Source: an uncultured Clostridia bacterium (GTDB taxonomy: Bacteria; Bacillota; Clostridia; Christensenellales; UBA1242). From it: 56,173 bases of DNA. The notes beneath the pieces are model-generated. The model did no database searches, had not been told where the DNA came from, and saw nothing but the letters and a program-made list of their open reading frames with translations. Location of the stretch: the NCBI GenBank assembly GCA_944383295.1, contig CALWOW010000020.1, positions 1-56,173 on the forward strand, written 5' to 3'. The translations under genes and the position numbers were made by a program. Shown one piece after another: positions 4,914 to 55,924 of this stretch (within the stretch, counting starts at the first letter, position 1; each line of letters starts with the position of its first letter).

Positions 4914-7900
4914 ATGAAAACGAAATTATTTGGCAAAATGACTTTATTTGCTTTCGTACTTATGGTGACTATGTCTTTAGGTTTTATGAGCCCTATGCTT
5001 TCTAGTAGTTTGAGTGGTGCAACTGAAGTTACACCAACAGGACAAGGCCGTGTTATCGAATTGACTGGATATGTCGCTGAGTATGATTTAAACGATGCAA
5101 AATCTTATAAAGTTAGCGAAACAGAAACTATAGAAGGTTTTGCTTTACCAAAAGCAGTCGTAAAAGAAACCACAGGTTCTACATCTGGTGAGACTGCAAC
5201 GATAGAAGTAAGAAATTCAGCAAGTAAGAAAATTGATTACAAAACAAGTACTGATGGCGTAAATTTCTTGAATGTGAACGAATCAGGAAAGTATTATGTA
5301 ACTTATTCTGTTGAAAACGGTGGCGTTACTACCGCTACTCGTGATATTGTTATCAATATTACTACTGATGAAGTAAGCTTTGATTTCGCTGAAAATTCAG
5401 CACAAATTATCCCTACAACAGCAGTCGCTGGTGACGAGATTGTTTTCCCAATGCCATCAATTAAACAAGGCGATGAAGTTTTGAAAGAACCAGGTGAAAT
5501 CAGCATTACATTGCAAGGCGCTGATTTGGGAACTCGTGATTTACAAGACAAGGTAGTAGATGGCAAAACTTTCAAATCTTACACAATTGCAGATACCGAT
5601 GAGGGTACATTTACACTTACTTACAGCTATGAACACAATGGAAACACAATTTACAAAAAATTTACATTTAATGTAGTAAAAAATGCTCCAGAAGTTCAAT
5701 TAAAGTACAGTGGGTATAGTAGTTCTCTTGAAAACTTGAAATTGGTGGTAGGTGAGGAAGCTAGTTTACCTCAACCTGTTGTTGTAAACAGCAAGGCAAA
5801 CGACGCTGTTGTTACTGATGTTTACACTGTAGTTACAGTTAAAAACAAAAATACAGGCGAAACATTTACTGTTACTGACTTTAAATTTACACCAACAAAA
5901 GATGGCGATTATTTAATCACATATTTGACTACCGATTTGAATGGTAAACATTCTTGTGGTTCTCAAATCAATAAAAACTATGTAAAGAAATCAGGTGACA
6001 GCATTACTTTGAAAGTTGTAGATGACTACGCTGTTGATGATGTTGTGACTATGAAAGAAAACTTTGATGAGTTGGAAAATGTAGATTACAACATTCCTAC
6101 AATCGTTTACAAAGTTACAGGCAGTGATAAAACAGTTAGTTTCCCTGCAGTATTTGCAACTGGCGGTTGGGGTGAGTACAAAAACTTAAAACTTACTCGT
6201 ACTATTTACAAGAATAACAGTTTGCAAGCAGTTTTGGAAGAAACTAAAAAGAGCGGAACTGACGAATACTACAAGGCTAACGAATCTGCTTCATACACAT
6301 TTAGTTCTGCTGGTACTTATACAATTAGATATCAAGCAGTTTATGTTGACGATGAGGGCAACGCTTTAGGATATGACACAACAAAACAACTTCCTAGTTA
6401 CACAATTGTAGTAGAAGAAGTTGATGCTGATGTTACTGAAACTGATTTGACTGTTAAAGCTCCAAATAGTATGCCTAAATCAACTAGAAAAGGTAAAACA
6501 ATTACTTTCAATGCTCCAACAGCAACTGACTACAAGAGTGGTACTACAACAATAGCCGACAAAAACTTAAAGATAGAGGTATCTTACGCTTTTGATGGTA
6601 TAACAACCACTACACCTTTATATGCAACTAAAAACAGTGATGGAACATATTCAATTGAAATTGTTGAACCAACAAACATTTCAGAGGGTACATGGGCAAG
6701 TGTTACAGGTTTAACAGTGACATTTAAGGCAACTAATGACCTTGGGAATCCCGCTACAGCAACTTCAAGAATTGCTATCGTTGATTACTCATCTGATACA
6801 ACTGCACCTACATTAGCAAAAGTTACTCCAGCTAGTGGTAGTGAAACAGATAAAATTGCTTTATCAACAGTACAATTTACAGATGCAAATAGTTTAACTG
6901 TATCTGCATATGTTACAAAGGGTAGCAAAGTACTTGAAGTTTACAACGCAACAACAGGCACCGATGTAACTTTGGAGGGTATTGTTTATACTCCTGTTGA
7001 AGCTGGTGACTACACAGTAACTTATGTTGCTATTGACCAAAACAACAACACTACAACTTATTGTGAAAACTACACAGTTGAATTTAAAGACGGTTATGCC
7101 GTTTCTATTGACACAATTTCTTCACAAGAATACGGTACAACTATTAACTTGCTTGACAAAATTCAAATTACTAAAAATGGTGCTAATGTTGATATGAGTA
7201 CTATTACAGTACAAATGACCAACGAAGAAGTTACTCAAGAAACATTAAATGGTTTGGCTAATGATACTTTGCTTATTCAAGTTATAGGTGACTACAGATG
7301 GCCTTCTTATGACAGACTTGACGGAGAAATAATTACACAAGAAGGTAGCATTGAAGTTAGAGCATGGGCAAAAACTGATGATATTTGTGATTTAGACAAA
7401 AATGGTTCAGTAAAGATTAGTTTTGCTACTTCTGACACTCAAGCTCCAACATTTACTATTGAAAATGAAAATCTAGACAATACTTCATATGCATTTAACA
7501 GTAATGACACTAGTGAAAATGTTATAGAATTGCCTTGGTTTAAAAATGTTGATGACAACAATGGTGCTGGTGTTGACTATGATTCAATGAAAATTACATT
7601 GACATACCAAAATGATAGCGAAAGTAGCCCATTTGCAACATTTACTAGAACTGATTACGAAGCTTTAGGTGCTGGGGAAAACTTGAAATTTACAGCAACT
7701 AAACAAGGTAAGATAAACGTAGTTTACTCTGTTAAGGATGTAAACAATCGTGAATCAACTCGTACATTCGTGTTGAATATTGGTGATGTTACTCCACCAG
7801 AAATTGTAGTAGCTAATGATGCAATTAGTGCTCCTACTAAAGTGGCTGATGATGGAAAAATAAGTATTGACTTAAGCAAAATTACTGTAGAAAATGATGA

Positions 7901-44707: not shown

Positions 44708-44905
44708 ATATAGTTAAATTATATAATAATTTATATTATGAAATTTGACACAGTTTTTAATCAAATAAAAAGAAAAAAGAAAAAACTCAAAGTCGAATAA
44801 AAAAATTCATAAACTTTGAGTTTTTCCTTTATTTAAGCCAAAATTGAATGGTGCCGAAGACCGGACTCGAACCGGTACGGGATTGCTCCCGAGGGATTTT
44901 AAGTC
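44708..44905. repeat. Left copy of a ~200-bp direct repeat (integrase 3' end + terminator + tRNA-Leu 3' half); the att core is 44849-44905
   Basis: Matches 55715-55924 apart from one missing 12-bp TTGACACAGTTT unit and about 4 substitutions. Confidence 0.95.
44849..44905 (-). pseudogene. 3' fragment of tRNA-Leu(TAA); att core duplicated by integration
   Basis: 57 bp identical to 55868-55924 except 44894; identity stops in the 5' strand of the anticodon stem. Confidence 0.9.
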
Positions 44906-44942
44906 ACAATAAAACCCCTTTTATAATGGCACTTTAAACAAC

Positions 44943-44965
44943 TTGACACAGTTTTTGACACAGTT
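44943..44965 (+). repeat. Tandem TTGACACAGTT repeats, putative integrase arm-type sites; partner pair at 55752-55774
   Basis: The same 11-mer occurs twice inside each end of the element and once at 44745-44755. Confidence 0.7.
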
Positions 44966-45038: not shown

Positions 45039-46193
45039 TTAATCTTCTATAAATATAGGGTCTAATTCTTCTAATTCTTTAATAGATACTTCGTTAGTTT
45101 TTTCTTTTAATTGTACTTTTGGTATATCATAATAATTGTTTATTAAATCTAATATAGAAGAACCGTTTTTTGTATTCAATACATAACTAGAAAAGTTGTC
45201 ATTATCTTTCTTTTGCTGTATTCCATCTAATTCAGCAAGTAATTTATCAAACTGCTCATTCGATAAATGTAATGTTTTCTTTTTGCCTTTCTTTAAATTA
45301 TATGTATGAAAATATGATTTAGAGCAATAAGGAACAGAAGACTTATCTTTATTCATATACTTTGATAAATAAAATATAACTTTATCAAAACTTGTTAAAT
45401 TATCGCGCGGGGTCAATGGTATTATACTACAAAACCCTAAATCATAAAAATCAGATAAAAAATTATAAATTTTATCACCTATTATAGTTTCTAACGGTTT
45501 CATATAATATTCATTTAAAACAGGTTTACCATTTCTCATTTTAATAGAACCGTCTTTATTTTTTCTAAATCGTTCCATATTAACCGCACGAGCAAGAATT
45601 TTACCAAGTAGGGCATTGCCGATTGCTCCGTGAAAATGTAATTTATTATTATCTTCGTGATACTCAATTACACTTAAAATCTTTATATCAGGATAATAAT
45701 ATTGTAATTTTTGTCTAAATTTCTTCCATGCATACTTAATAGATTTTTGGTTTGTACTATCTATTTTTTTAGGGTCAAAAGTAATAGTTATAAAATATTG
45801 CCAATCATTATTTTGACCGTATGATAGGAAACAGTCCAAAACACGTTTTAAACTTTTTTTTCTACTTAATTCTAGATTATGTACTGTTGCACGTTCATCT
45901 TCTAAACTTTTTTTCCTTAAACAATTATTTTCATCATAATACCACTTCTTTGTTCGTGGTCCTTTAGAATGATTACCTAAAACAGAATAATCTTCTTTTG
46001 TGCGGAATAATTCGATATTATTATTGTTTACACGCACAGTAGTATTTGCAAATAAAATTTTATGCTGTTTATTCAATTTACGAAAAGCATTAACAATACT
46101 TTTTTGATTATTAAAGTCTATATCACAAAAAGGACATTTATGTATATTCTTATTATGTAATAAGCATTCTCTACATAATTCTTTTAGTTCCAT
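45039..46193 (-). CDS. HUH-superfamily rolling-circle replication initiator
   Basis: Motif I FITITF, motif II LHFHG, motif III YLSKYMNK; N-terminal CxxC...CxxC. Confidence 0.88.
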   Translation of the reverse strand: MELKELCRECLLHNKNIHKCPFCDIDFNNQKSIVNAFRKLNKQHKILFANTTVRVNNNNIELFRTKEDYSVLGNHSKGPRTKKWYYDENNCLRKKSLEDERATVHNLELSRKKSLKRVLDCFLSYGQNNDWQYFITITFDPKKIDSTNQKSIKYAWKKFRQKLQYYYPDIKILSVIEYHEDNNKLHFHGAIGNALLGKILARAVNMERFRKNKDGSIKMRNGKPVLNEYYMKPLETIIGDKIYNFLSDFYDLGFCSIIPLTPRDNLTSFDKVIFYLSKYMNKDKSSVPYCSKSYFHTYNLKKGKKKTLHLSNEQFDKLLAELDGIQQKKDNDNFSSYVLNTKNGSSILDLINNYYDIPKVQLKEKTNEVSIKELEELDPIFIED

Positions 46194-46497: not shown

Positions 46498-46894
46498 CGC
46501 TTTCCATCGTATCACTTAGTACCGGCGTATCCATAGGTTTAACCACTTTTGGCACTAGTATTTGTGCTTCAGCAACCTCTTGTACATAACTTTCTTTTTG
46601 TAACCCTTTATTTTTTGTTTCATTCAATATTTCTTTACATTTTAACCATAACTTTTTATGACAAATACGCCATACAAAACTATGTGGCATTGTTTCTAAT
46701 GCTACTTTTAATTGCAATTCACGTTTAGATTGACGCAACAAAGGTTTACTATATAACTTTGAATATTTTTTCAAATTTTTTTCTACAAACTTAATAAATG
46801 ATTTAGAAGGGTTAACAACACCAAAGGAATCTGCCATTTTATCATATTCAGTATAAAAAAAGACAGTTAACTCACTAAAATTATTAATTTCCAT
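46487..46894 (-). CDS. Hypothetical element protein
   Basis: AGGAG RBS; overlaps the end of the ATPase gene. Confidence 0.75.
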   Translation of the reverse strand: MEINNFSELTVFFYTEYDKMADSFGVVNPSKSFIKFVEKNLKKYSKLYSKPLLRQSKRELQLKVALETMPHSFVWRICHKKLWLKCKEILNETKNKGLQKESYVQEVAEAQILVPKVVKPMDTPVLSDTMESGQG

Positions 46895-47744
46895 AATTTA
46901 TTACTCCTAATTCTTTTAATATACCCTTATCACGTTCCGCATTTTTCCAAAAACCTCGTGGGGCAGTAAAATAATGCGTATTATTAAACTCAACAAAACT
47001 ATCACGTGTAAATTGATAACCATCTTCAGTATAATAATCAACGCCACTATTATAAACATTTTGATAAAAAACGGGGCGATTACTTTTTGAGTTATAACAA
47101 GACAAAATATTAAAATCAAAACTATCAGTAATTTTTTTGCCATACTTCGCTAAATCTTTATTATCGTTAGAAGTTTGATATTTTTCTGCTATTTCACAAG
47201 AAGCAAATTCTGTCATGTGCCATTTTGATTTCGTTATTATTCCATATTCATTTTTTGTAAATTCTACTTTATCCATAACCAAAAAGCGTTCAGCAATGCC
47301 TCTAATGTTTAAATCTATATTTGCTAATCTTTGGCAAGCAAGATAAACATTATAATCATTATGCCTATGTAATTGATACCAATGATATACATCATCACGC
47401 AAATACCTAGACATACGACTATCATAATACCGTTGCGCCTCGTCTAAAAAAATATGTGAATACGGCGGAATAAAAGTAGTATCAAAAAACGGGTTATCCA
47501 ATCCTATACTAAAACCATCTATATAATATGTTTTTAATTTACGCCCAAAATGTATAGGGGTATCACAAAATACCAAATGTTTTTGTGGCGCTAAATCCAA
47601 ATTAAAACCAGTGCTATTTAATTGTATAAATTCACGCTTACAAGATAAAAAATCAACTCGACCATTAATCATACATTCTATAGCAATTTTTGCAAGATAG
47701 GTAGATTTACCAGCGCCAGGAAGACCACAAATACAAGTTAGCAT
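46884..47744 (-). CDS. Zot/pI-like morphogenesis ATPase (no TM segment)
   Basis: Walker A GLPGAGKS at the N-terminus, Walker B IFLDEAQ, HRH...Q....D..IR signature. Confidence 0.8.
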   Translation of the reverse strand: MLTCICGLPGAGKSTYLAKIAIECMINGRVDFLSCKREFIQLNSTGFNLDLAPQKHLVFCDTPIHFGRKLKTYYIDGFSIGLDNPFFDTTFIPPYSHIFLDEAQRYYDSRMSRYLRDDVYHWYQLHRHNDYNVYLACQRLANIDLNIRGIAERFLVMDKVEFTKNEYGIITKSKWHMTEFASCEIAEKYQTSNDNKDLAKYGKKITDSFDFNILSCYNSKSNRPVFYQNVYNSGVDYYTEDGYQFTRDSFVEFNNTHYFTAPRGFWKNAERDKGILKELGVINYGN

Positions 47745-47771
47745 ATTTACCCTCATTTTAAATATAAAATA

Positions 47772-47800
47772 TTGACTTTTTTATTTTTTTTGTATATAAT
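47772..47800 (+). promoter_or_regulatory. Sigma-A promoter antisense to the element's main operon
   Basis: TTGACT-17 nt-TATAAT. Confidence 0.7.
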
Positions 47801-47806
47801 AATATA

Positions 47807-47878
47807 TAGACAAATATCTGATGACATTTTATGTCTGTGGGTATCAATTCCCAGTGAATAGATATTTGTCTTTTTTTT
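47807..47878 (+). ncRNA. Candidate ~70-nt structured small RNA
   Basis: Starts right after the promoter; 12-bp closing stem AGACAAATATCT/AGATATTTGTCT encloses two hairpins; ends in a T8 run. Confidence 0.5.
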
Positions 47879-48212
47879 ATTTATACTTCCTACGATTATT
47901 TTTATATTTTCTTATTTTGGCACGAACCTTTGGCATATCACTTTCAGAAAAATTAAAATTTTTTCTTACACTAGAATAATTATTCTTTTTACTCGTTATT
48001 ATCCCATTTCGCAAATATGATTTATCAATTTTATTTTTTTGAGGATTTTTATCTAAAAGAATATTTTTCTTGCCAAAAGTATATTTTCGATGAGTTATTC
48101 CTAAACTATGATATTTATTAGACTCTTCTTCGAATACATAATTAATATGTTTTGTATTATAATTATAGCGGAATTCATTTTTAGAAAATCGCTTTTTTTT
48201 ATTTTTTCTCAT
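47877..48212 (-). CDS. Small very basic protein, possible PemK/MazF-fold RNase
   Basis: AGGTGG RBS before ATG 48212; pattern H..YV....Y..LGITH...NI.L..NP....SY....FS..D..KV resembles PemK-like spacing (inference). Confidence 0.45.
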   Translation of the reverse strand: MRKNKKKRFSKNEFRYNYNTKHINYVFEEESNKYHSLGITHRKYTFGKKNILLDKNPQKNKIDKSYLRNGIITSKKNNYSSVRKNFNFSESDMPKVRAKIRKYKNNRRKYK

Positions 48213-48268
48213 ATTCACCACCTAAATAATGGTACGAGGTTTTTTAAGATACCTCGATAAACTTTTAA

Positions 48269-49474
48269 TTATTCACCATATGCGTGACCATAAAAATCAC
48301 TATATTTTTTTACATAAGTTAAATATTGTTCGTCTTGCGCATATTCAGGGTGTTGTAATATTAATTGTTCATAAACTTCATCGACAAAGATATACGTAGG
48401 GCAACTATCAAAACAATAAATATAATTATTAATTGTTGCTTCAGGTATTGATTTAAAAATTATTCGTGAAAAACTACAAGCATTTTCAGCGCCCCACATT
48501 ACACCTTCGCCAATTGCTTCAATAGTTTGCAAACTATAAGGTAATTCAAGTGTAAAATCAGTTTTTACATAAACATTGTTTAAATTTGAAACTTGTGTAA
48601 CACCCTCATTAATTATAACTTTAGATAATGTTTGATTTTCTAAATCATAATTTAAATAAGCATGAAATGCAGTAAAATCTACTTGTTCTATGTAAGAAGA
48701 AGTTGTATATTCAGTACCTTTAATAGTATCAGGATAAACATAAATTAATTTTTGTGTAGCAGTATCTACAAGAGTTCCATCCATATTTTCATAAGTACCG
48801 TAAATTTTATTATCTTTAGGAAAATTAATTTCCTTTACATTTTTACCTAAATAGCGAATATTTACTTCTTCGTAATTTGTAGGAATATTTACTACTTCAA
48901 CTGTATCGCTTAAACAATCAACAGCGGTTACTTCATAATCATTACCAGATACATACAAACGCTTTTTACCTAAATGAGTAATAGGGAATGCATTCTCAAT
49001 GCGACCTAACGGTAAAACTAATTTTTCATCTAAATCTCTCAAAGATTTACATACTATTTCAGTTTTATCCGCATATATAAATACAAGATTAAATTGTTCT
49101 ATATCGAAGTCAGTCCCATGGTCAAAATCAGGAGATGACATGATATTCATACGAATTTCTTCTGTATATTCTAACAACTCTTCTAAATTATTAAATGTAT
49201 AATTTTGGTCTATCTCTTTATAACTGAAAGTTTCGGGCAAAGTGAGTACTGTTTCTTCACCGGTATAACCTTCAATCATCCACATAGCGTCATTATAACG
49301 AAATTTGTATGGAAGAGAATCAGCCTCAACTTCTGCAGGCTCTTCATTTGCGTTAAAAGTATTTTGTGTCCATTCCTTAACAGCAGGTACGGTAGCGTAC
49401 AGAACGCCAAAAATCACAGTACATATTGCTATAGCAACAAGTATGCTAATTACAGTTTTTAAAAAATAATTCAT
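48269..49474 (-). CDS. Membrane-anchored protein with degenerate BspA-type LRRs
   Basis: N-terminal TM; IEGYTG....LTLP, V.I.EGV..., LELP.SL..I; AAGGAG RBS. Confidence 0.7.
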   Translation of the reverse strand: MNYFLKTVISILVAIAICTVIFGVLYATVPAVKEWTQNTFNANEEPAEVEADSLPYKFRYNDAMWMIEGYTGEETVLTLPETFSYKEIDQNYTFNNLEELLEYTEEIRMNIMSSPDFDHGTDFDIEQFNLVFIYADKTEIVCKSLRDLDEKLVLPLGRIENAFPITHLGKKRLYVSGNDYEVTAVDCLSDTVEVVNIPTNYEEVNIRYLGKNVKEINFPKDNKIYGTYENMDGTLVDTATQKLIYVYPDTIKGTEYTTSSYIEQVDFTAFHAYLNYDLENQTLSKVIINEGVTQVSNLNNVYVKTDFTLELPYSLQTIEAIGEGVMWGAENACSFSRIIFKSIPEATINNYIYCFDSCPTYIFVDEVYEQLILQHPEYAQDEQYLTYVKKYSDFYGHAYGE

Positions 49475-49496: not shown

Positions 49497-50609
49497 TTAA
49501 TTAAAAGTATTTTCTTCTTTTATCTTTATTCTTTCTTGTATGGTATTCCAAACTGTATCCTCTAAATATTGAGAATAACATTCACTAGAAACATATATTG
49601 TTGTATCTTGAGGTATGTTTTTAACCGCTAATTCAGTTGCCGATACAAACTTATCAAAAATCAATGTTCCATGAAAGCCAACAAAACAGTGTTCACTTAT
49701 TTTAATACAATTAGGTAAATACAAATTTGTTATAGCACTTTCATAAAAACAATAATCACTATTAAAAAATTCAATTTTAGGTAAAGATAAATCACTTAAT
49801 TTTGTTGTTTTATAAAAAGCGTAATTACCTAAACTTGTACAATTAAGCAATTCAGTTGATACTAAATTAGATTGTCCGGCACAAGCATAAGATTTTAAAC
49901 TAGAAATTCCTTTGCTAGAAAATTCAGTTATTTGTCCTGTTAATATCAAATTAAGTTGCTCATCTTCTATTGTTTCACCATAATCAATAGTTGTATAATC
50001 ACTAGGTAAACTATAAACACGCCCAAAATCACGCCAAACACTATTATTTAAATAAGCATTAACAACACCGTTTTGAATATAAATATTAAAAGTATCATTG
50101 CATTCGAACAGAGAAGCGCTAGAAGAAATAGAGCAAAGAGAATTACCTGTTAAATAAATTGATTTTAAATTAGGACACCCTATAAAAGCGTTATTATCAA
50201 TATTTTTAAGATTATCAAAACGAACATACTCTAAATTAATACAATCACGAAAAGAGTAAGCAGGAATATTTTCAACATTAGGTAAATAAACACTAGTTAA
50301 ATTTATATTACCAGCAAAAGCATATTCGCTTAAATTTGAAACATTGCTTTTAAATTTAGTGTAATTATCGCTTAAGTAATTTTCTGTTATTGAAAGAACG
50401 ACCGGTTCAGGTTCTTCCGGGTCTATTGTTGGGTCTTCAGGTTCTTCAGGTGAATTAGGGTCTGTATCTGTAGGTTCTTCAGGTGCAGACTGTTCAGGAA
50501 CAAATACAGCATTAACCCAATTACGAACAACAGGGAATTGATAAGCAACAAACAAGCCAACTATTAAAACCACGGCACTAACTAAATAAGTCCATTTTGG
50601 TACACACAT
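49497..50609 (-). CDS. Membrane-anchored BspA-type leucine-rich-repeat (LRR_5) protein with Pro/Glu linker
   Basis: N-terminal TM, PEEP repeats, I...AF..C.NL..I.L repeats, IYV.....Y.....W caps. Confidence 0.8.
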   Translation of the reverse strand: MCVPKWTYLVSAVVLIVGLFVAYQFPVVRNWVNAVFVPEQSAPEEPTDTDPNSPEEPEDPTIDPEEPEPVVLSITENYLSDNYTKFKSNVSNLSEYAFAGNINLTSVYLPNVENIPAYSFRDCINLEYVRFDNLKNIDNNAFIGCPNLKSIYLTGNSLCSISSSASLFECNDTFNIYIQNGVVNAYLNNSVWRDFGRVYSLPSDYTTIDYGETIEDEQLNLILTGQITEFSSKGISSLKSYACAGQSNLVSTELLNCTSLGNYAFYKTTKLSDLSLPKIEFFNSDYCFYESAITNLYLPNCIKISEHCFVGFHGTLIFDKFVSATELAVKNIPQDTTIYVSSECYSQYLEDTVWNTIQERIKIKEENTFN

Positions 50610-50610
50610 A

Positions 50611-51915
50611 TTAACCACCCCCTCGATTGAATGGTAACGAAATCAATTTCCAAAGACCTAAAAGTATGTATTTTAAAATTTGAAACATAGCAACGAATAT
50701 CCAAGGTAATAATGGTACTAAAACAACCAATAATAAAATTAAAAGTAAAAGTTTAACAATTTTTTTCCACCAAGGTTCAGGTGGGTTATTATCAGGGGTT
50801 AAATCACCGCTTTGCTTATTATCAACTACGCCAAGATTATAAACTACACCGTTGGTTTCAAACTTTAATCGCAACAAAGTTACATCAGTAACTTCGGTAA
50901 CATATTCATAACTTGTAGCAGAATTTACCAATTGATAATCACTCTCATAAAAACGCAAAACCCATTGTTTACCCCTCAATATTTCTTTTGTTTCATTTGT
51001 CAAATTGTTTTGACTATCAGCAATAAAAGAAGTAACTTTTTCTATTCGCTGCCAATTATATTGTGTAGCAAACCAACCATGAGCGGAATTATTACCTTTA
51101 TCAATATCGCTTAATTTTACATTCTCTGTAATTAATTCACCTTCGCTATAACGATGACTACCTGTTAAATTTATATGATAAGTTACATCTTGTCGAATAT
51201 AGCTAATATCAACTTCCATTAATTTATCCATAGGTTTATCAGTATTAAATGCTACATAATGCGAGTCACACGCTTGATTGTATAATGTAAAACCGTTACT
51301 ATAACGGACAAAACCGATATACTTATCTGTAACTAAAATAGTTTCAGTATCTAAACAACTATAAGTAACTTGATTATCTACTGTAACGGCTGTAAACAAT
51401 TTACCAACTTCATAACTAACTTCACTAACAGTATTACCACCGCTAACTTGTTCATCTATCAAAACATTAAAAGGACGAAAAATAGAAACAATAGAATAAT
51501 AACGCATTAAATCAGGCAATATTTTAAAATCGTTTACCTTATATTTAAAAAACACACCATTAGAATTTATAAAAGTTAACGAATAATTTTTTGGGCTAAA
51601 ACTATCATTAATAGAAGTTGAAAAATTAATACTAGACGCTCTAAAATCTAAAGCACGCCCACTAGGTTGATAAACATAAACTAAAAGTTCGTTATCTACA
51701 CTTTCTGCTATTTGAATGACTTGTAATGAATAATCATTTTCGATTAAAGGATAATCGTTAATATTAAATGTTTCATCAGTTTGCAAATCTTCTAGAACAT
51801 TTGAATAAGTGGAATCAGCATAATACACGCCGATAGGAATAAATAACAACAAACACACAAATAATAATAAAAAGCAAATCGAAGATTTAAAAACTACTTT
51901 CTTTTGTTTTTGCAC
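50611..51915 (-). CDS. Secreted protein with C-terminal membrane anchor (spike/pIII-like topology)
   Basis: AAGGAG RBS before GTG 51915; signal peptide; beta-rich ectodomain; C-terminal PWWKKIVKLLLLILLLVVLVPLLPW. Confidence 0.7.
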   Translation of the reverse strand: MQKQKKVVFKSSICFLLLFVCLLLFIPIGVYYADSTYSNVLEDLQTDETFNINDYPLIENDYSLQVIQIAESVDNELLVYVYQPSGRALDFRASSINFSTSINDSFSPKNYSLTFINSNGVFFKYKVNDFKILPDLMRYYSIVSIFRPFNVLIDEQVSGGNTVSEVSYEVGKLFTAVTVDNQVTYSCLDTETILVTDKYIGFVRYSNGFTLYNQACDSHYVAFNTDKPMDKLMEVDISYIRQDVTYHINLTGSHRYSEGELITENVKLSDIDKGNNSAHGWFATQYNWQRIEKVTSFIADSQNNLTNETKEILRGKQWVLRFYESDYQLVNSATSYEYVTEVTDVTLLRLKFETNGVVYNLGVVDNKQSGDLTPDNNPPEPWWKKIVKLLLLILLLVVLVPLLPWIFVAMFQILKYILLGLWKLISLPFNRGGG

Positions 51916-54195: not shown

Positions 54196-54510
54196 ATGAA
54201 ATTAAAAGAATTAAGAGAACAAAAAGGATTATCCCAATATGAAATAGCACCTTTACTAAACATAAAAAGGGCAACATACGCAAATTATGAAACAGGAAAA
54301 ACACAACCAACAATAGAAATACTATGCCAAATAGCAGATTTTTACGGAGTATCACTTGATTATCTTTGTGACCACAAAACACAAGATAAACTTCAATTAG
54401 GATATTTAACAGACACACAAAAAATTGCTATTAACTTAATTTTAAAATTAAATGAAAATAACCTATTACAAACAATAGGATACTTGACTGCTCAAATTCA
54501 AAATCAATAA
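54196..54510 (+). CDS. Xre/Cro-C1 family HTH repressor
   Basis: LKELR...GLSQ.EIA..L.I.R..Y.NYETG...P......IADFYGVSLDYL. Confidence 0.92.
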   Translation: MKLKELREQKGLSQYEIAPLLNIKRATYANYETGKTQPTIEILCQIADFYGVSLDYLCDHKTQDKLQLGYLTDTQKIAINLILKLNENNLLQTIGYLTAQIQNQ

Positions 54511-54774
54511 ATATTAACATTTTTTTACATTCGTTTTATAATGCTTCTAAAATAGGAAAAATATTTTAGGAGTAAATTATGCACAACGAAGAAATCTTCA
54601 AATCTTTTTTAAAAGTTACTAGAAGAAGTAGAATCAGCAAATGAAACAATTCAAAAGGCTAACAAAATCTTAAAAGGTTACTTTGGTGGAATGTTGGAAG
54701 CCACACAAAAAGAAAAGAACAACAATAATAATGTTTATATTTTTCAAAATAATACATTAGGAGAATTAAGCAAT

Positions 54775-55755
54775 ATGAAAAATATAAGCAATAGAAAAGA
54801 TGGTCGTAAAATAATAAGAATACAAAAAGATAAAATTATTTATACAAGATACGCCAAAAACGAAAAAGAAGCAAAAACTAAAAGAAAAGAATTATTACTT
54901 GAAATAAAAAATAATCAAATTATAAAAATAAAATACAATTTTCACGAATGGTTAGATAACTGGTATATAACATATAAACAACCTTTTATAAAAGATGATA
55001 CAGCAAAAAAACTAAAAAGAATACTTGATAAAATAAAAAATGGAATAAAAAACCTAGAACTAACAAAAGTCAATACACAAATTATTCAAAATTATCTAAA
55101 CACTATACAAACAAGTCGAACAAAAGAATTTATCACATTATATTTAAATGCTTCATTGCAAAAAGCAGAAGACTTAAATATCATTACCAAAAACCCTTTT
55201 AAATCAGTTGTTAAAGACAAAAAATTAAACAATATAAGGGAAGGGTATAATTTAGAAGAACAAAAACAAATATTAAAAGCAATAAAAGGCACAGAAATAG
55301 AACCAATAATTTTAATTTATCTAGTAACGGGCATTAGAAAAAGTGAAATTGAAACAATAGATTTAGAAAAGGACCTAAATATAGAAAATAAAACTATAAG
55401 AATTTTAAGTGAAAAGAAAAGAGACAAAAAAAATCTTTACAGAGTAATTGATTTAACACAAGAAACCATAAATTTATTTATAAACAACAAAGATAAATTA
55501 AAACTTAAAAGCGATTACATTTATAGACAATTCAAAATTATACTAGACAAACTAAATATTCGTAGCGGATTACATTTGTTAAGACATACATTCGCAACAA
55601 ATCATTTTTATTTAGGTACACCATTAAAATTCATTAGCAGTTGGTTAGGGCACGAAACAATAGAATTAACACAAAATATTTATACGCATATTGATAGAAC
55701 TATAAAAAAAGAAGATATAGTTAAATTATATAATAATTTATATTATCAAATTTGA
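54775..55755 (+). CDS. Tyrosine recombinase/integrase (start uncertain; frame is open from 54613)
   Basis: N-terminal RKDGR arm-binding motif, TGIRKSE, H.LRHTFAT, LGH, IYTH. Confidence 0.95.
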   Translation: MKNISNRKDGRKIIRIQKDKIIYTRYAKNEKEAKTKRKELLLEIKNNQIIKIKYNFHEWLDNWYITYKQPFIKDDTAKKLKRILDKIKNGIKNLELTKVNTQIIQNYLNTIQTSRTKEFITLYLNASLQKAEDLNIITKNPFKSVVKDKKLNNIREGYNLEEQKQILKAIKGTEIEPIILIYLVTGIRKSEIETIDLEKDLNIENKTIRILSEKKRDKKNLYRVIDLTQETINLFINNKDKLKLKSDYIYRQFKIILDKLNIRSGLHLLRHTFATNHFYLGTPLKFISSWLGHETIELTQNIYTHIDRTIKKEDIVKLYNNLYYQI

Positions 55756-55924
55756 CACAGTTTTTGACACAGTTTTTAATCAAATAAAAAGAAAAATAAA
55801 AAAACTCAAAGTCGAATAAAAAAATTCATAAACTTTGAGTTTTTCCTTTATTTAAGCCAAAATTGAATGGTGCCGAAGACCGGACTCGAACCGGTACGGG
55901 ATTGCTCCCGAGAGATTTTAAGTC
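55715..55924. repeat. Right copy of the direct repeat; att core 55868-55924
   Basis: Matches 44708-44905; includes terminator hairpin AAAAACTCAAAGT/ACTTTGAGTTTTT. Confidence 0.95.

Follow-up and report, generated by a model that had tools for sequence, protein, structure and literature searches.

We report a gene pair of about 450 bp found in a 56,173-nucleotide (nt) stretch of DNA from an uncultured Clostridia bacterium (assembly GCA_944383295.1, contig CALWOW010000020.1, positions 1 to 56,173 of the forward strand; the whole stretch is here called the window). One member of the pair is a gene for a basic protein of 111 amino acids (aa), p111, whose predicted fold resembles that of the MazF, CcdB and ToxN toxins. 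The other is a predicted structured RNA of ~70 nt that is convergent with the p111 gene, with a near-consensus sigma-A promoter of its own and an intrinsic terminator at the stop codon or last codons of that gene. The promoter and the RNA structure accompany p111-family genes in related loci, the RNA helices carry compensatory base changes, and the pairing favors the strand antisense to p111. We consider the best explanation to be an RNA-antitoxin module that combines a type III-like toxin fold with a layout like that of type I systems and of the OOP RNA of phage lambda, a view that we hold to be evenly poised between right and wrong. According to this explanation, the two genes would form a module residing on small, integrated, inovirus-like elements in gut Clostridia; the first gene would encode a candidate endoribonuclease toxin of ~110 aa, and the small RNA would keep p111 in check, acting as an RNA antitoxin.

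A convergent promoter and predicted structured RNA at the 3' end of the p111 gene

An earlier note on this DNA had pointed to a promoter firing against the operon that holds p111 and to a compact fold behind it, and both were confirmed. The promoter (TTGACT-17-TATAAT) lies at 47772-47800 on the + strand and matches the sigma-A-type consensus at 11 of 12 positions. The closing stem, both inner hairpins and the T8 run that touches the stop codon of the 111-aa open reading frame (ORF) are all where the note had placed them (Table 1). The closing stem consists of 12 Watson-Crick pairs and one G-U pair, and the TAA stop codon occupies 47877-47879 on the - strand. On the + strand the three-way junction folds with -21 kcal/mol (z = -3.81), and 1 of 200 shuffled sequences folded as well. 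The strict promoter pattern TTGAC[AT]-N17-TATA[AC]T occurs 52 times in the 1.05-Mb genome, both strands counted; a closing stem of at least 8 bp plus a T5 run follows the promoter at just one of these 52 sites, namely the unit in the window. Rfam covariance models gave no match at the window RNA (E <= 1) nor in seven related loci (E <= 0.1).

The family was examined in 25 loci from species-representative genomes, all of them metagenome-assembled genomes of Clostridia and mostly Christensenellales-like, and in 17 loci from metagenomes. Promoters were counted in the 43 loci with at least 120 nt past the stop codon, using the pattern TTGAC[AT]-N16-18-TATA[ACT]T on the antisense strand within 170 nt. 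A strict convergent promoter was found near the stop codon of the p111-family gene in 39 of the 43 loci, compared to a background of 0.005 per 170 nt elsewhere in the same loci. The hexamers are kept in these 39 loci while the spacer varies, and the median distance from the -10 hexamer to the stop codon is 66 nt. The earlier note had staked its proposal on the promoter and fold being conserved together with the protein homologues; this co-conservation is what the 39 loci display, and it is accompanied by covariation.

The RNAs fall into two structural classes. Class A comprises the window RNA and those of L005, L007, L012, L017 and L025, each with a three-way junction followed by U7-8. Class B comprises the remaining loci, in which a 5' hairpin at the start site precedes a second stem; this stem contains the stop codon and has a short hairpin nested within it. 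The RNA ends in a U-run that is the complement of the last Lys codons of the protein gene. In 23 of 23 class B loci, the RNA extends at its 3' end into the protein gene, by a median of 11 nt (range 2-24 nt); the overlap in the window is 2 nt. The distant locus L077 (E 2.6e-6 to the family profile) keeps TTGACT-17-TATACT and a 66-nt fold with the stop codon in a stem. A GUUGGC-like stretch recurs in the RNAs, even in that of L077, and GNRA-type (GAAA) tetraloops fall on the antisense, promoter-driven strand. As a separate observation, the first ORF past the RNA promoter encodes a hydrophobic peptide of ~30-35 aa in L002, L004, L008, L018, L020, L022 and L077 (e.g. MLKILKLIIRIV...); these peptides may be coat-like or membrane proteins.

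Covariation was assessed on class alignments without L006, L020, L021, L023, L029 and exact duplicates. When MAFFT was applied to the full set of 25 class B sequences, the result was not good enough to yield a consensus fold, and 12 of the 25, chosen for aligning well, were used. With a hand-drawn three-helix structure, 97.1% of the cells in this alignment of 12 were paired, compared to 28.8-47.8% with slid partners; 12 of 18 pairs changed on both sides, and none of 500 shuffles reached the observed score. A covariance model built from these sequences (R1) finds the RNA beside the gene in other class B loci. In the resulting 32 distinct model-fitted sequences, 95.8% of cells were paired and compensatory changes were present in all 18 pairs. 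The same alignments bear on the strand. There were 27 G-U cells on the antisense strand, compared to 5 A-C cells (read as G-U if the opposite strand is taken), and the antisense strand was the more stable in 24 of 34 distinct sequences (L020, L023 and duplicates left out), by a mean of 2.5 kcal/mol. For class A, the same three-way junction is the minimum-energy fold or a fold of equal energy in 6 of 6 sequences. The closing stem carries compensatory changes at 6 of 11 pairs among these six, and the inner stems differ in sequence in all six with pairing kept, as judged from a hand alignment with a register slip in L017.

Family and predicted fold of p111

The p111 ORF encodes 111 aa if it starts at the ATG at 48212 and 114 aa if a GTG further upstream is used, and the product is Lys/Arg-rich and very basic. 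It has 20 close homologues of about 105-190 aa, and a profile search of 1.84 billion representatives extended the family to 340 clusters at E <= 0.001. Across 59 diverse members His22 is invariant, and Thr40, Leu53, Asn56, Pro57 and Asp92 are nearly invariant. The ORF is thus a real gene of an unannotated family. For the 20 close members, PADLOC gave no relevant match in any, and Pfam at E <= 10 gave no relevant family in any, including no PF02452; none of 75 distant members scored above a Pfam family cut-off. No relatives were found in viral contigs by scans with the family alignment (A1) and with P0120, and tblastn returned no match for p111 in isolated phages and none for P0120 in plasmids. 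In the ESM Atlas the 30 nearest clusters carry no family, and in the nearest cluster with a name 14% of members carry PemK (score 0.89), which serves as a lead only.

An AlphaFold2 model from a 20-sequence alignment has a predicted local distance difference test score (pLDDT) of 92.9 and a predicted template-modeling score (pTM) of 0.84, and its topology is five strands plus a C-terminal helix. In a Foldseek search of the PDB, all of the matches listed were MazF-type toxins, with template-modeling (TM) scores of 0.45-0.62. An independent structural search (VIA, 48,161 chains) ranked 13 chains best, all of them MazF, CptN, CcdB, Kid or ToxN, with Z scores of 7.5 for MazF, 7.3 for CptN (4rmo; 98 residues, 3.7 A) and 5.5 for ToxN (4ato); AbiQ (Z 4.8) and E. 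coli ToxN rank below these 13. With fair confidence, then, the modeled p111 fold is MazF/CcdB/ToxN-like, and the model makes p111 a candidate endoribonuclease toxin, built like members of the MazF/Kid/CcdB/ToxN superfamily from an SH3-like barrel and a C-terminal helix. The suggestion of a PemK/MazF-like protein in the earlier note therefore stands as to the predicted fold, which the AlphaFold model, Foldseek and the 13 best VIA matches agree upon, and has no support from sequence. No sequence or profile method links p111 to the MazF, CcdB or ToxN families, and the structural scores are middling; we do not file p111 in any of them.

Linkage, decay and the prophage that carries the pair

The immediate protein neighbors of the pair, in the window and 18 other loci, come from many unrelated groups; one protein of ~700 aa lies upstream of the pair in four loci and downstream in three. 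No conserved small protein of the MazE/PemI antitoxin type is shared beside p111 across the window and the 18 loci. Because the neighboring protein genes vary, the RNA is the only constant partner of the p111 family. The Zot ATPase gene lies directly downstream only in the window, and elsewhere is more distant, upstream or not found. Replication proteins of at least four unrelated kinds occur in p111 loci (PF23343, Viral_Rep with helicase, Rep_1 and DnaD-like), as determined from Pfam scans of 110 of 212 called ORFs and PHROG scans of 53 hand-picked ORFs. In a class-level genome sample the p111 family occurred in 4 of 399 genomes and a related Zot in 6 of 400, with both present only in the genome of the window; none of 400 further genomes of the phylum had the p111 family. 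The orientation of the module is always that of the phage operon. These data indicate that the p111-RNA pair behaves as a mobile accessory cassette.

Decayed copies provide further information on the relationship between protein and RNA. At L075:1270-1930 (genome G032, same family), an internal deletion and a break in frame past 'GHPAY' have made a pseudogene of the p111 homologue; the three surrounding convergent units, each a TTGACT-17-TATAmT promoter with its small RNA, remain intact. In L025 the p111 gene is frameshifted and the RNA unit intact. The RNA was thus kept in two of the three loci with a broken p111 gene, the third (L023) having lost the promoter too. A harmful protein and a protective RNA would be expected to decay in this way, the protein being lost and the RNA retained. 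In L015 (5390-5730), a C-terminal p111 remnant is followed by an intact class B RNA gene (5624-5694), ~300 nt upstream of a complete pair.

Additional RNA units were seen in several loci. A further unit of L015, with a TTGAAT -35 hexamer, likewise lies ~300 nt upstream of the complete pair. L010 (6330-7310) has three promoter-small-RNA units in a row with nearly the same promoter sequence: the first behind p111, the second behind a different, unrelated basic ORF of 147 aa (6621-7064) and the third an orphan (7197-7281). The 147-aa ORF has no Pfam match, and its hhalign probability to the p111 family is 0.66%. In L006 (6333-6450), two tandem terminator-like structured units stand behind one promoter, the only array-like case seen.

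The host genome is that of a low-GC Clostridia member, 1.05 Mb in size and 97% complete. Within the window, direct repeats of 162 nt and 51 nt, ~11 kb apart, flank an integrated element, and its Zot ATPase, rolling-circle replication protein, integrase and repeats at a tRNA gene identify this ~11-kb element as an inovirus-like prophage (Table 1). No coat protein was identified among the element's genes. The - strand gene string ends with the BspA-type leucine-rich-repeat protein, a 401-aa protein, the 111-aa ORF, the Zot ATPase, a 135-aa protein and the rolling-circle replication protein. The earlier note had placed the pair between structural genes and the ATPase, and this is where it lies, with large, probably structural genes on one side and Zot on the other; the promoter-RNA-ORF unit occupies the only sizeable internal intergenic gap of the element. 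The host also has a separate, canonical MazF (contig C27:13497-13820) that is unrelated in sequence to p111.

Other observations on the element are as follows. Relatives of the BspA-type protein are present in L012 and L021. The 401-aa gene and the ribosome-binding site that serves the 111-aa ORF are separated by a short hairpin, CGAGGT-10 nt-ACCTCG (48213-48268, -), which may be an attenuator or processing site. ARAGORN called a 99-nt 'tRNA-Asn (att)' at 44849-44947 (-), within the left direct repeat; this is probably no gene but a second copy of the 3' portion of the tRNA-Leu attachment site.

Table 1. Positions of the module and of other prophage features within the window.
Feature	Position	Strand	Basis
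-35 hexamer TTGACT of small-RNA promoter	47772-47777	+	motif search
-10 hexamer TATAAT, spacer 17 nt	47795-47800	+	motif search
Predicted small RNA, ~72 nt	47807-47878	+	fold; start inferred 6-8 nt past -10, end within T-run
Closing stem, 5' arm	47808-47820	+	fold and inverted repeat I7
Closing stem, 3' arm	47859-47871	+	fold and inverted repeat
Inner hairpin a, GACAT-TTT-ATGTC	47823-47835	+	fold
Inner hairpin b, TGGG-8 nt-CCCA	47838-47853	+	fold
T8 run (terminator tail)	47871-47878	+	last 2 nt within ORF stop codon on other strand
p111 gene, basic protein, candidate ribonuclease toxin	47877-48212	-	homologues, AlphaFold model
Zot-type assembly ATPase, downstream of module	46884-47756	-	PF05707 4.8e-07, phrog_197 1.5e-16
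Rolling-circle replication protein	45039-46193	-	PF23343
BspA-type leucine-rich-repeat protein, among large, probably structural prophage genes	49497-50618	-	PF13306 1.4e-19
Helix-turn-helix regulator of element	54196-54510	+	Pfam/PHROG scans
Tyrosine integrase of element	54691-55755	+	PF00589 match and PHROG scan
Left direct repeat (~200 nt) of element	44708-44905	.	repeat search
Right direct repeat copy, adjoins tRNA-Leu and tRNA-Cys	55715-55924		repeat search

Possible action of the RNA and comparison with known systems

The small RNA is by construction perfectly complementary to the 3' untranslated region and the 3' end of the p111 gene. Because of this complementarity to the mRNA 3' end, and because the layout is that of OOP, SR4 and SR6, we rate antisense-triggered mRNA decay as its most likely action. 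As with OOP on cII and with SR4 and SR6, the RNA would form a duplex with the p111 mRNA, the duplex would be cleaved by a double-strand RNase, which is RNase III for OOP-type RNAs, and with the loss of its protective 3' hairpin the mRNA would decay. Additionally or instead, the folded RNA could bind p111 directly in type III style; the likeness to CptN and ToxN, the charge of p111, the conserved RNA architecture and the orphan RNA copies leave room for such binding. On a chronically replicating or integrated phage, the pair would act as an addiction or exclusion module. A more far-reaching proposal, which we put forward tentatively and consider somewhat doubtful, is that the pair represents a new class of RNA antitoxin. 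In this class a minimal MazF/ToxN-fold ribonuclease would be neutralized by a single-copy, independently transcribed, convergent RNA that both pairs with the mRNA 3' end and docks on the protein, a type I/III hybrid that is mobile in single-stranded DNA prophages of gut Clostridia and enforces their carriage or excludes rivals.

With its toxin-type fold and a convergent single-copy RNA as sole constant partner, this widespread family of at least 340 clusters would bridge type I and type III, and would add a protein family and an RNA family absent from current libraries. Neither the protein nor the RNA is covered by Rfam, protein-family or defense-system models. In full-text literature searches, no account emerged of a convergent small RNA partnered with a MazF-fold protein; the family could be listed in Supplementary Table 5 of PMC6813254, outside the scope of these searches. 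In its sections on toxin-antitoxin pairs, that large survey of inoviruses describes type II pairs plus a single type IV pair and no others, nearly all of them from Proteobacteria; it considers other phyla and inovirus families likely to be under-annotated and probably to hide undescribed pairs (PMC6813254). The pair described here would be the first RNA-based candidate among inovirus toxin-antitoxin modules.

A number of results limit the case for an RNA-antitoxin module or weigh against it. In the window, the complementary - strand folds about as well as the + strand (z = -4.62), so the window alone cannot tell which strand matters. Promoter-like sites are not enriched in the region (78 found compared to 74.5 expected from shuffles), so the window promoter taken alone is not beyond chance; its strict form together with its conservation raises it above chance. 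The strict promoter is missing in 4 of the 43 loci, three of which have weaker hexamers (L022, L025, L031) and one of which (L023) has a truncated gene and no promoter, so that in L023 protein gene and RNA promoter were lost together. The 32-sequence alignment (A5) is model-fitted and its sequences are related, and the shuffle controls therefore overstate significance. Class A has only six members and shows no strand preference in folding energy (three of six each way). Because the class B model R1 does not detect the class A RNA of the window at E <= 1, the common origin of the two classes is drawn from position, promoter and terminator only. As for the protein, sequence searches of Pfam, PHROG, PADLOC and the PDB with p111 or family alignments returned nothing relevant. 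An hhalign comparison with 27 canonical MazF proteins, drawn from genomes of the same order, gave a probability of 0.1% (A1) or 0.3% (A7); its sole short segment, which sets the invariant His-Pro on the Arg-Pro of MazF, has a probability of 0.3% and is suggestive without being significant. No Foldseek match reached E <= 0.001 (best E 0.022), and all VIA Z scores are below 8, a range that the tool warns may reflect a common arrangement. Several homologues bear long Lys/Ala/Pro-rich N-terminal tails, a feature as compatible with a structural or regulatory protein that binds nucleic acids as with a toxin. Known type I toxins, moreover, are small membrane peptides, and p111 is a Lys/Arg-rich protein of 111 aa with a predicted beta-barrel and helix.

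Two other explanations retain both the protein and the RNA. According to one of these, which we consider unlikely, the module would be purely type III-like, with the folded RNA binding p111 and blocking its active site and the complementarity to the mRNA a by-product of gene position. This would suit the resemblance of p111 to CptN and ToxN as well as to MazF, its very basic character, and the kept RNA architecture with its GNRA-type loops on the antisense strand and its GUUGGC-like stretch. It would also suit the RNA units that do not overlap an intact gene (the orphan of L010, the unit behind the L015 remnant, the tandem unit of L006 and the three of L075), which are equally explained, however, as remnants of decayed modules. 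ToxN is structurally related to Kid, MazF and CcdB, as stated in the part of Blower et al. (2012; PMC3401426) on its fold, but the criteria set out in the type III passages of PMC12283969, upstream tandem repeats and a shared promoter with an internal terminator, describe features absent here, and p111 has no match to PADLOC or Pfam toxin models. The other explanation, to which we also give a low probability, is that p111 is not a toxin at all but a phage RNA-binding regulator or chaperone in the manner of FinO-FinP, with the RNA tuning p111 or late genes as OOP tunes cII. The linkage of protein and RNA and the antisense geometry would fit a regulator, as would the Lys-rich tails and low-complexity N-terminal extensions of some homologues, the lack of a sequence link to any toxin family, and the constant orientation with the phage operon. 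On the other hand, the structural matches are dominated by toxins (13 of the top 13), and the p111 gene is sporadic and moves relative to core genes. The survival of the RNA in two of three broken copies is also the pattern of a toxin and its antidote, even though L023 departs from it.

The remaining explanations do without an RNA that acts on p111. The unit could be a cis-acting DNA or terminator element only, that is, a bidirectional terminator, packaging signal or single-strand origin with the promoter incidental or serving as a hairpin promoter for priming. Ff phages have a packaging hairpin that doubles as a terminator, and a minus-strand origin primed by RNA polymerase. In keeping with such an explanation, the window hairpin folds about equally on both strands, and its place is intergenic within an inovirus-like element; but the hexamers are conserved across the loci while the spacer is variable, the G-U asymmetry of 27 to 5 favors the antisense strand, and the unit tracks the 111-aa gene rather than a replication protein. 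We regard a purely cis-acting element as very unlikely. Its variant with a hairpin promoter on single-stranded DNA was rejected, since folding of the viral strand as DNA leaves the hexamers mostly unpaired (means of 2.6 of 6 and 1.6 of 6 over 34 sequences), which is unlike a hairpin promoter. The earlier note had also raised antisense regulation of the downstream ATPase, in keeping with the position of the window unit directly upstream of the Zot gene. This did not hold up: the RNA promoter sits between the RNA and the Zot ribosome-binding site, leaving the Zot start uncovered, and in 18 other loci the downstream gene comes from many unrelated groups, with Zot elsewhere or not found. Regulation of Zot by the RNA is thus exceedingly improbable.

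RNA antitoxins are known in two forms, antisense RNAs directed against tiny membrane peptides (type I) and repeat arrays processed by ToxN-like nucleases (type III). The RNA-antitoxin module that we favor shares features with both. Like ToxIN, CptIN and TenpIN, it would pair a predicted fold related to Kid and MazF with a non-coding RNA in place of a protein partner, and the PDB title of 4rmo places CptIN in gut Clostridia as well. It differs in that the RNA is single-copy, has its own promoter, and lies downstream and convergent. In type III systems, as described in the portions of PMC12283969 and PMC3401426 on gene organization, tandem repeats and a terminator stand upstream of the toxin gene under one promoter. 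These are absent here: the intergenic region upstream of the p111 ORF is 56 nt, and Tandem Repeats Finder reported two trivial 8-9-nt repeats only in 47300-49000, bearing out the non-canonical layout anticipated in the earlier note. The proteins of the p111 family, at ~110 aa, are also shorter than the type III toxins of 155-170 aa and have no sequence match to the ToxN, CptN, TenpN or AbiQ families. The likeness to MazEF and PemIK is one of fold only, as seen in the TM and Z scores to MazF chains; p111 lacks both a PF02452 match and a conserved adjacent gene for a protein antitoxin. As regards the catalytic Arg and Thr that MazF/PemK proteins carry in their active-site loops, the observations on p111 are the invariant His22, the nearly invariant Thr40 and the non-significant hhalign segment.

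In its layout the module is closer to type I systems. The criterion of a cis-antisense RNA that overlaps the toxin mRNA agrees with the gene geometry, the transcript being predicted. Published abstracts describe bsrG/SR4 and yonT/SR6 as convergent pairs on B. subtilis prophages; the RNA, of ~70-100 nt, has a promoter and a terminator to itself and reaches across the 3' end of the toxin mRNA. The predicted p111 pair resembles them in each respect. The toxins differ, those of bsrG and yonT being small hydrophobic peptides, and p111 a basic, soluble-looking, MazF-like protein; the overlap with the coding region is also short here, at 2-24 nt. SymE of E. coli is a nuclease-like, non-membrane type I toxin with an AbrB fold, held under a cis-antisense RNA, SymR. 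The p111 pair would be like SymE/SymR in this respect and differs from it in fold and in that SymR overlaps the 5' end of its target.

The OOP RNA of phage lambda offers a parallel for the position of the RNA. According to the passage of PMC5869508 on this RNA, OOP transcription runs leftward from pO to tO, and the RNA covers 52 bases at the cII 3' end and suppresses CII toxicity. OOP and, judging from its sequence features, the RNA described here are alike in being short phage antisense RNAs that have a promoter of their own, stop at an intrinsic terminator, run toward the 3' end of a phage gene and lie just upstream of the next gene block; CII, the product of the OOP target, is toxic in excess. 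CII is a transcription activator unrelated to p111, the two RNAs come from different hosts and phage types, and neither sequence nor Rfam connects them. In plasmid pMV158, a rolling-circle replicon, the small countertranscript RNAII lies between a small protein gene (CopG) and rep, and targets the start region of rep. The RNA described here differs from RNAII in that it stays with the 111-aa gene whatever gene lies downstream.

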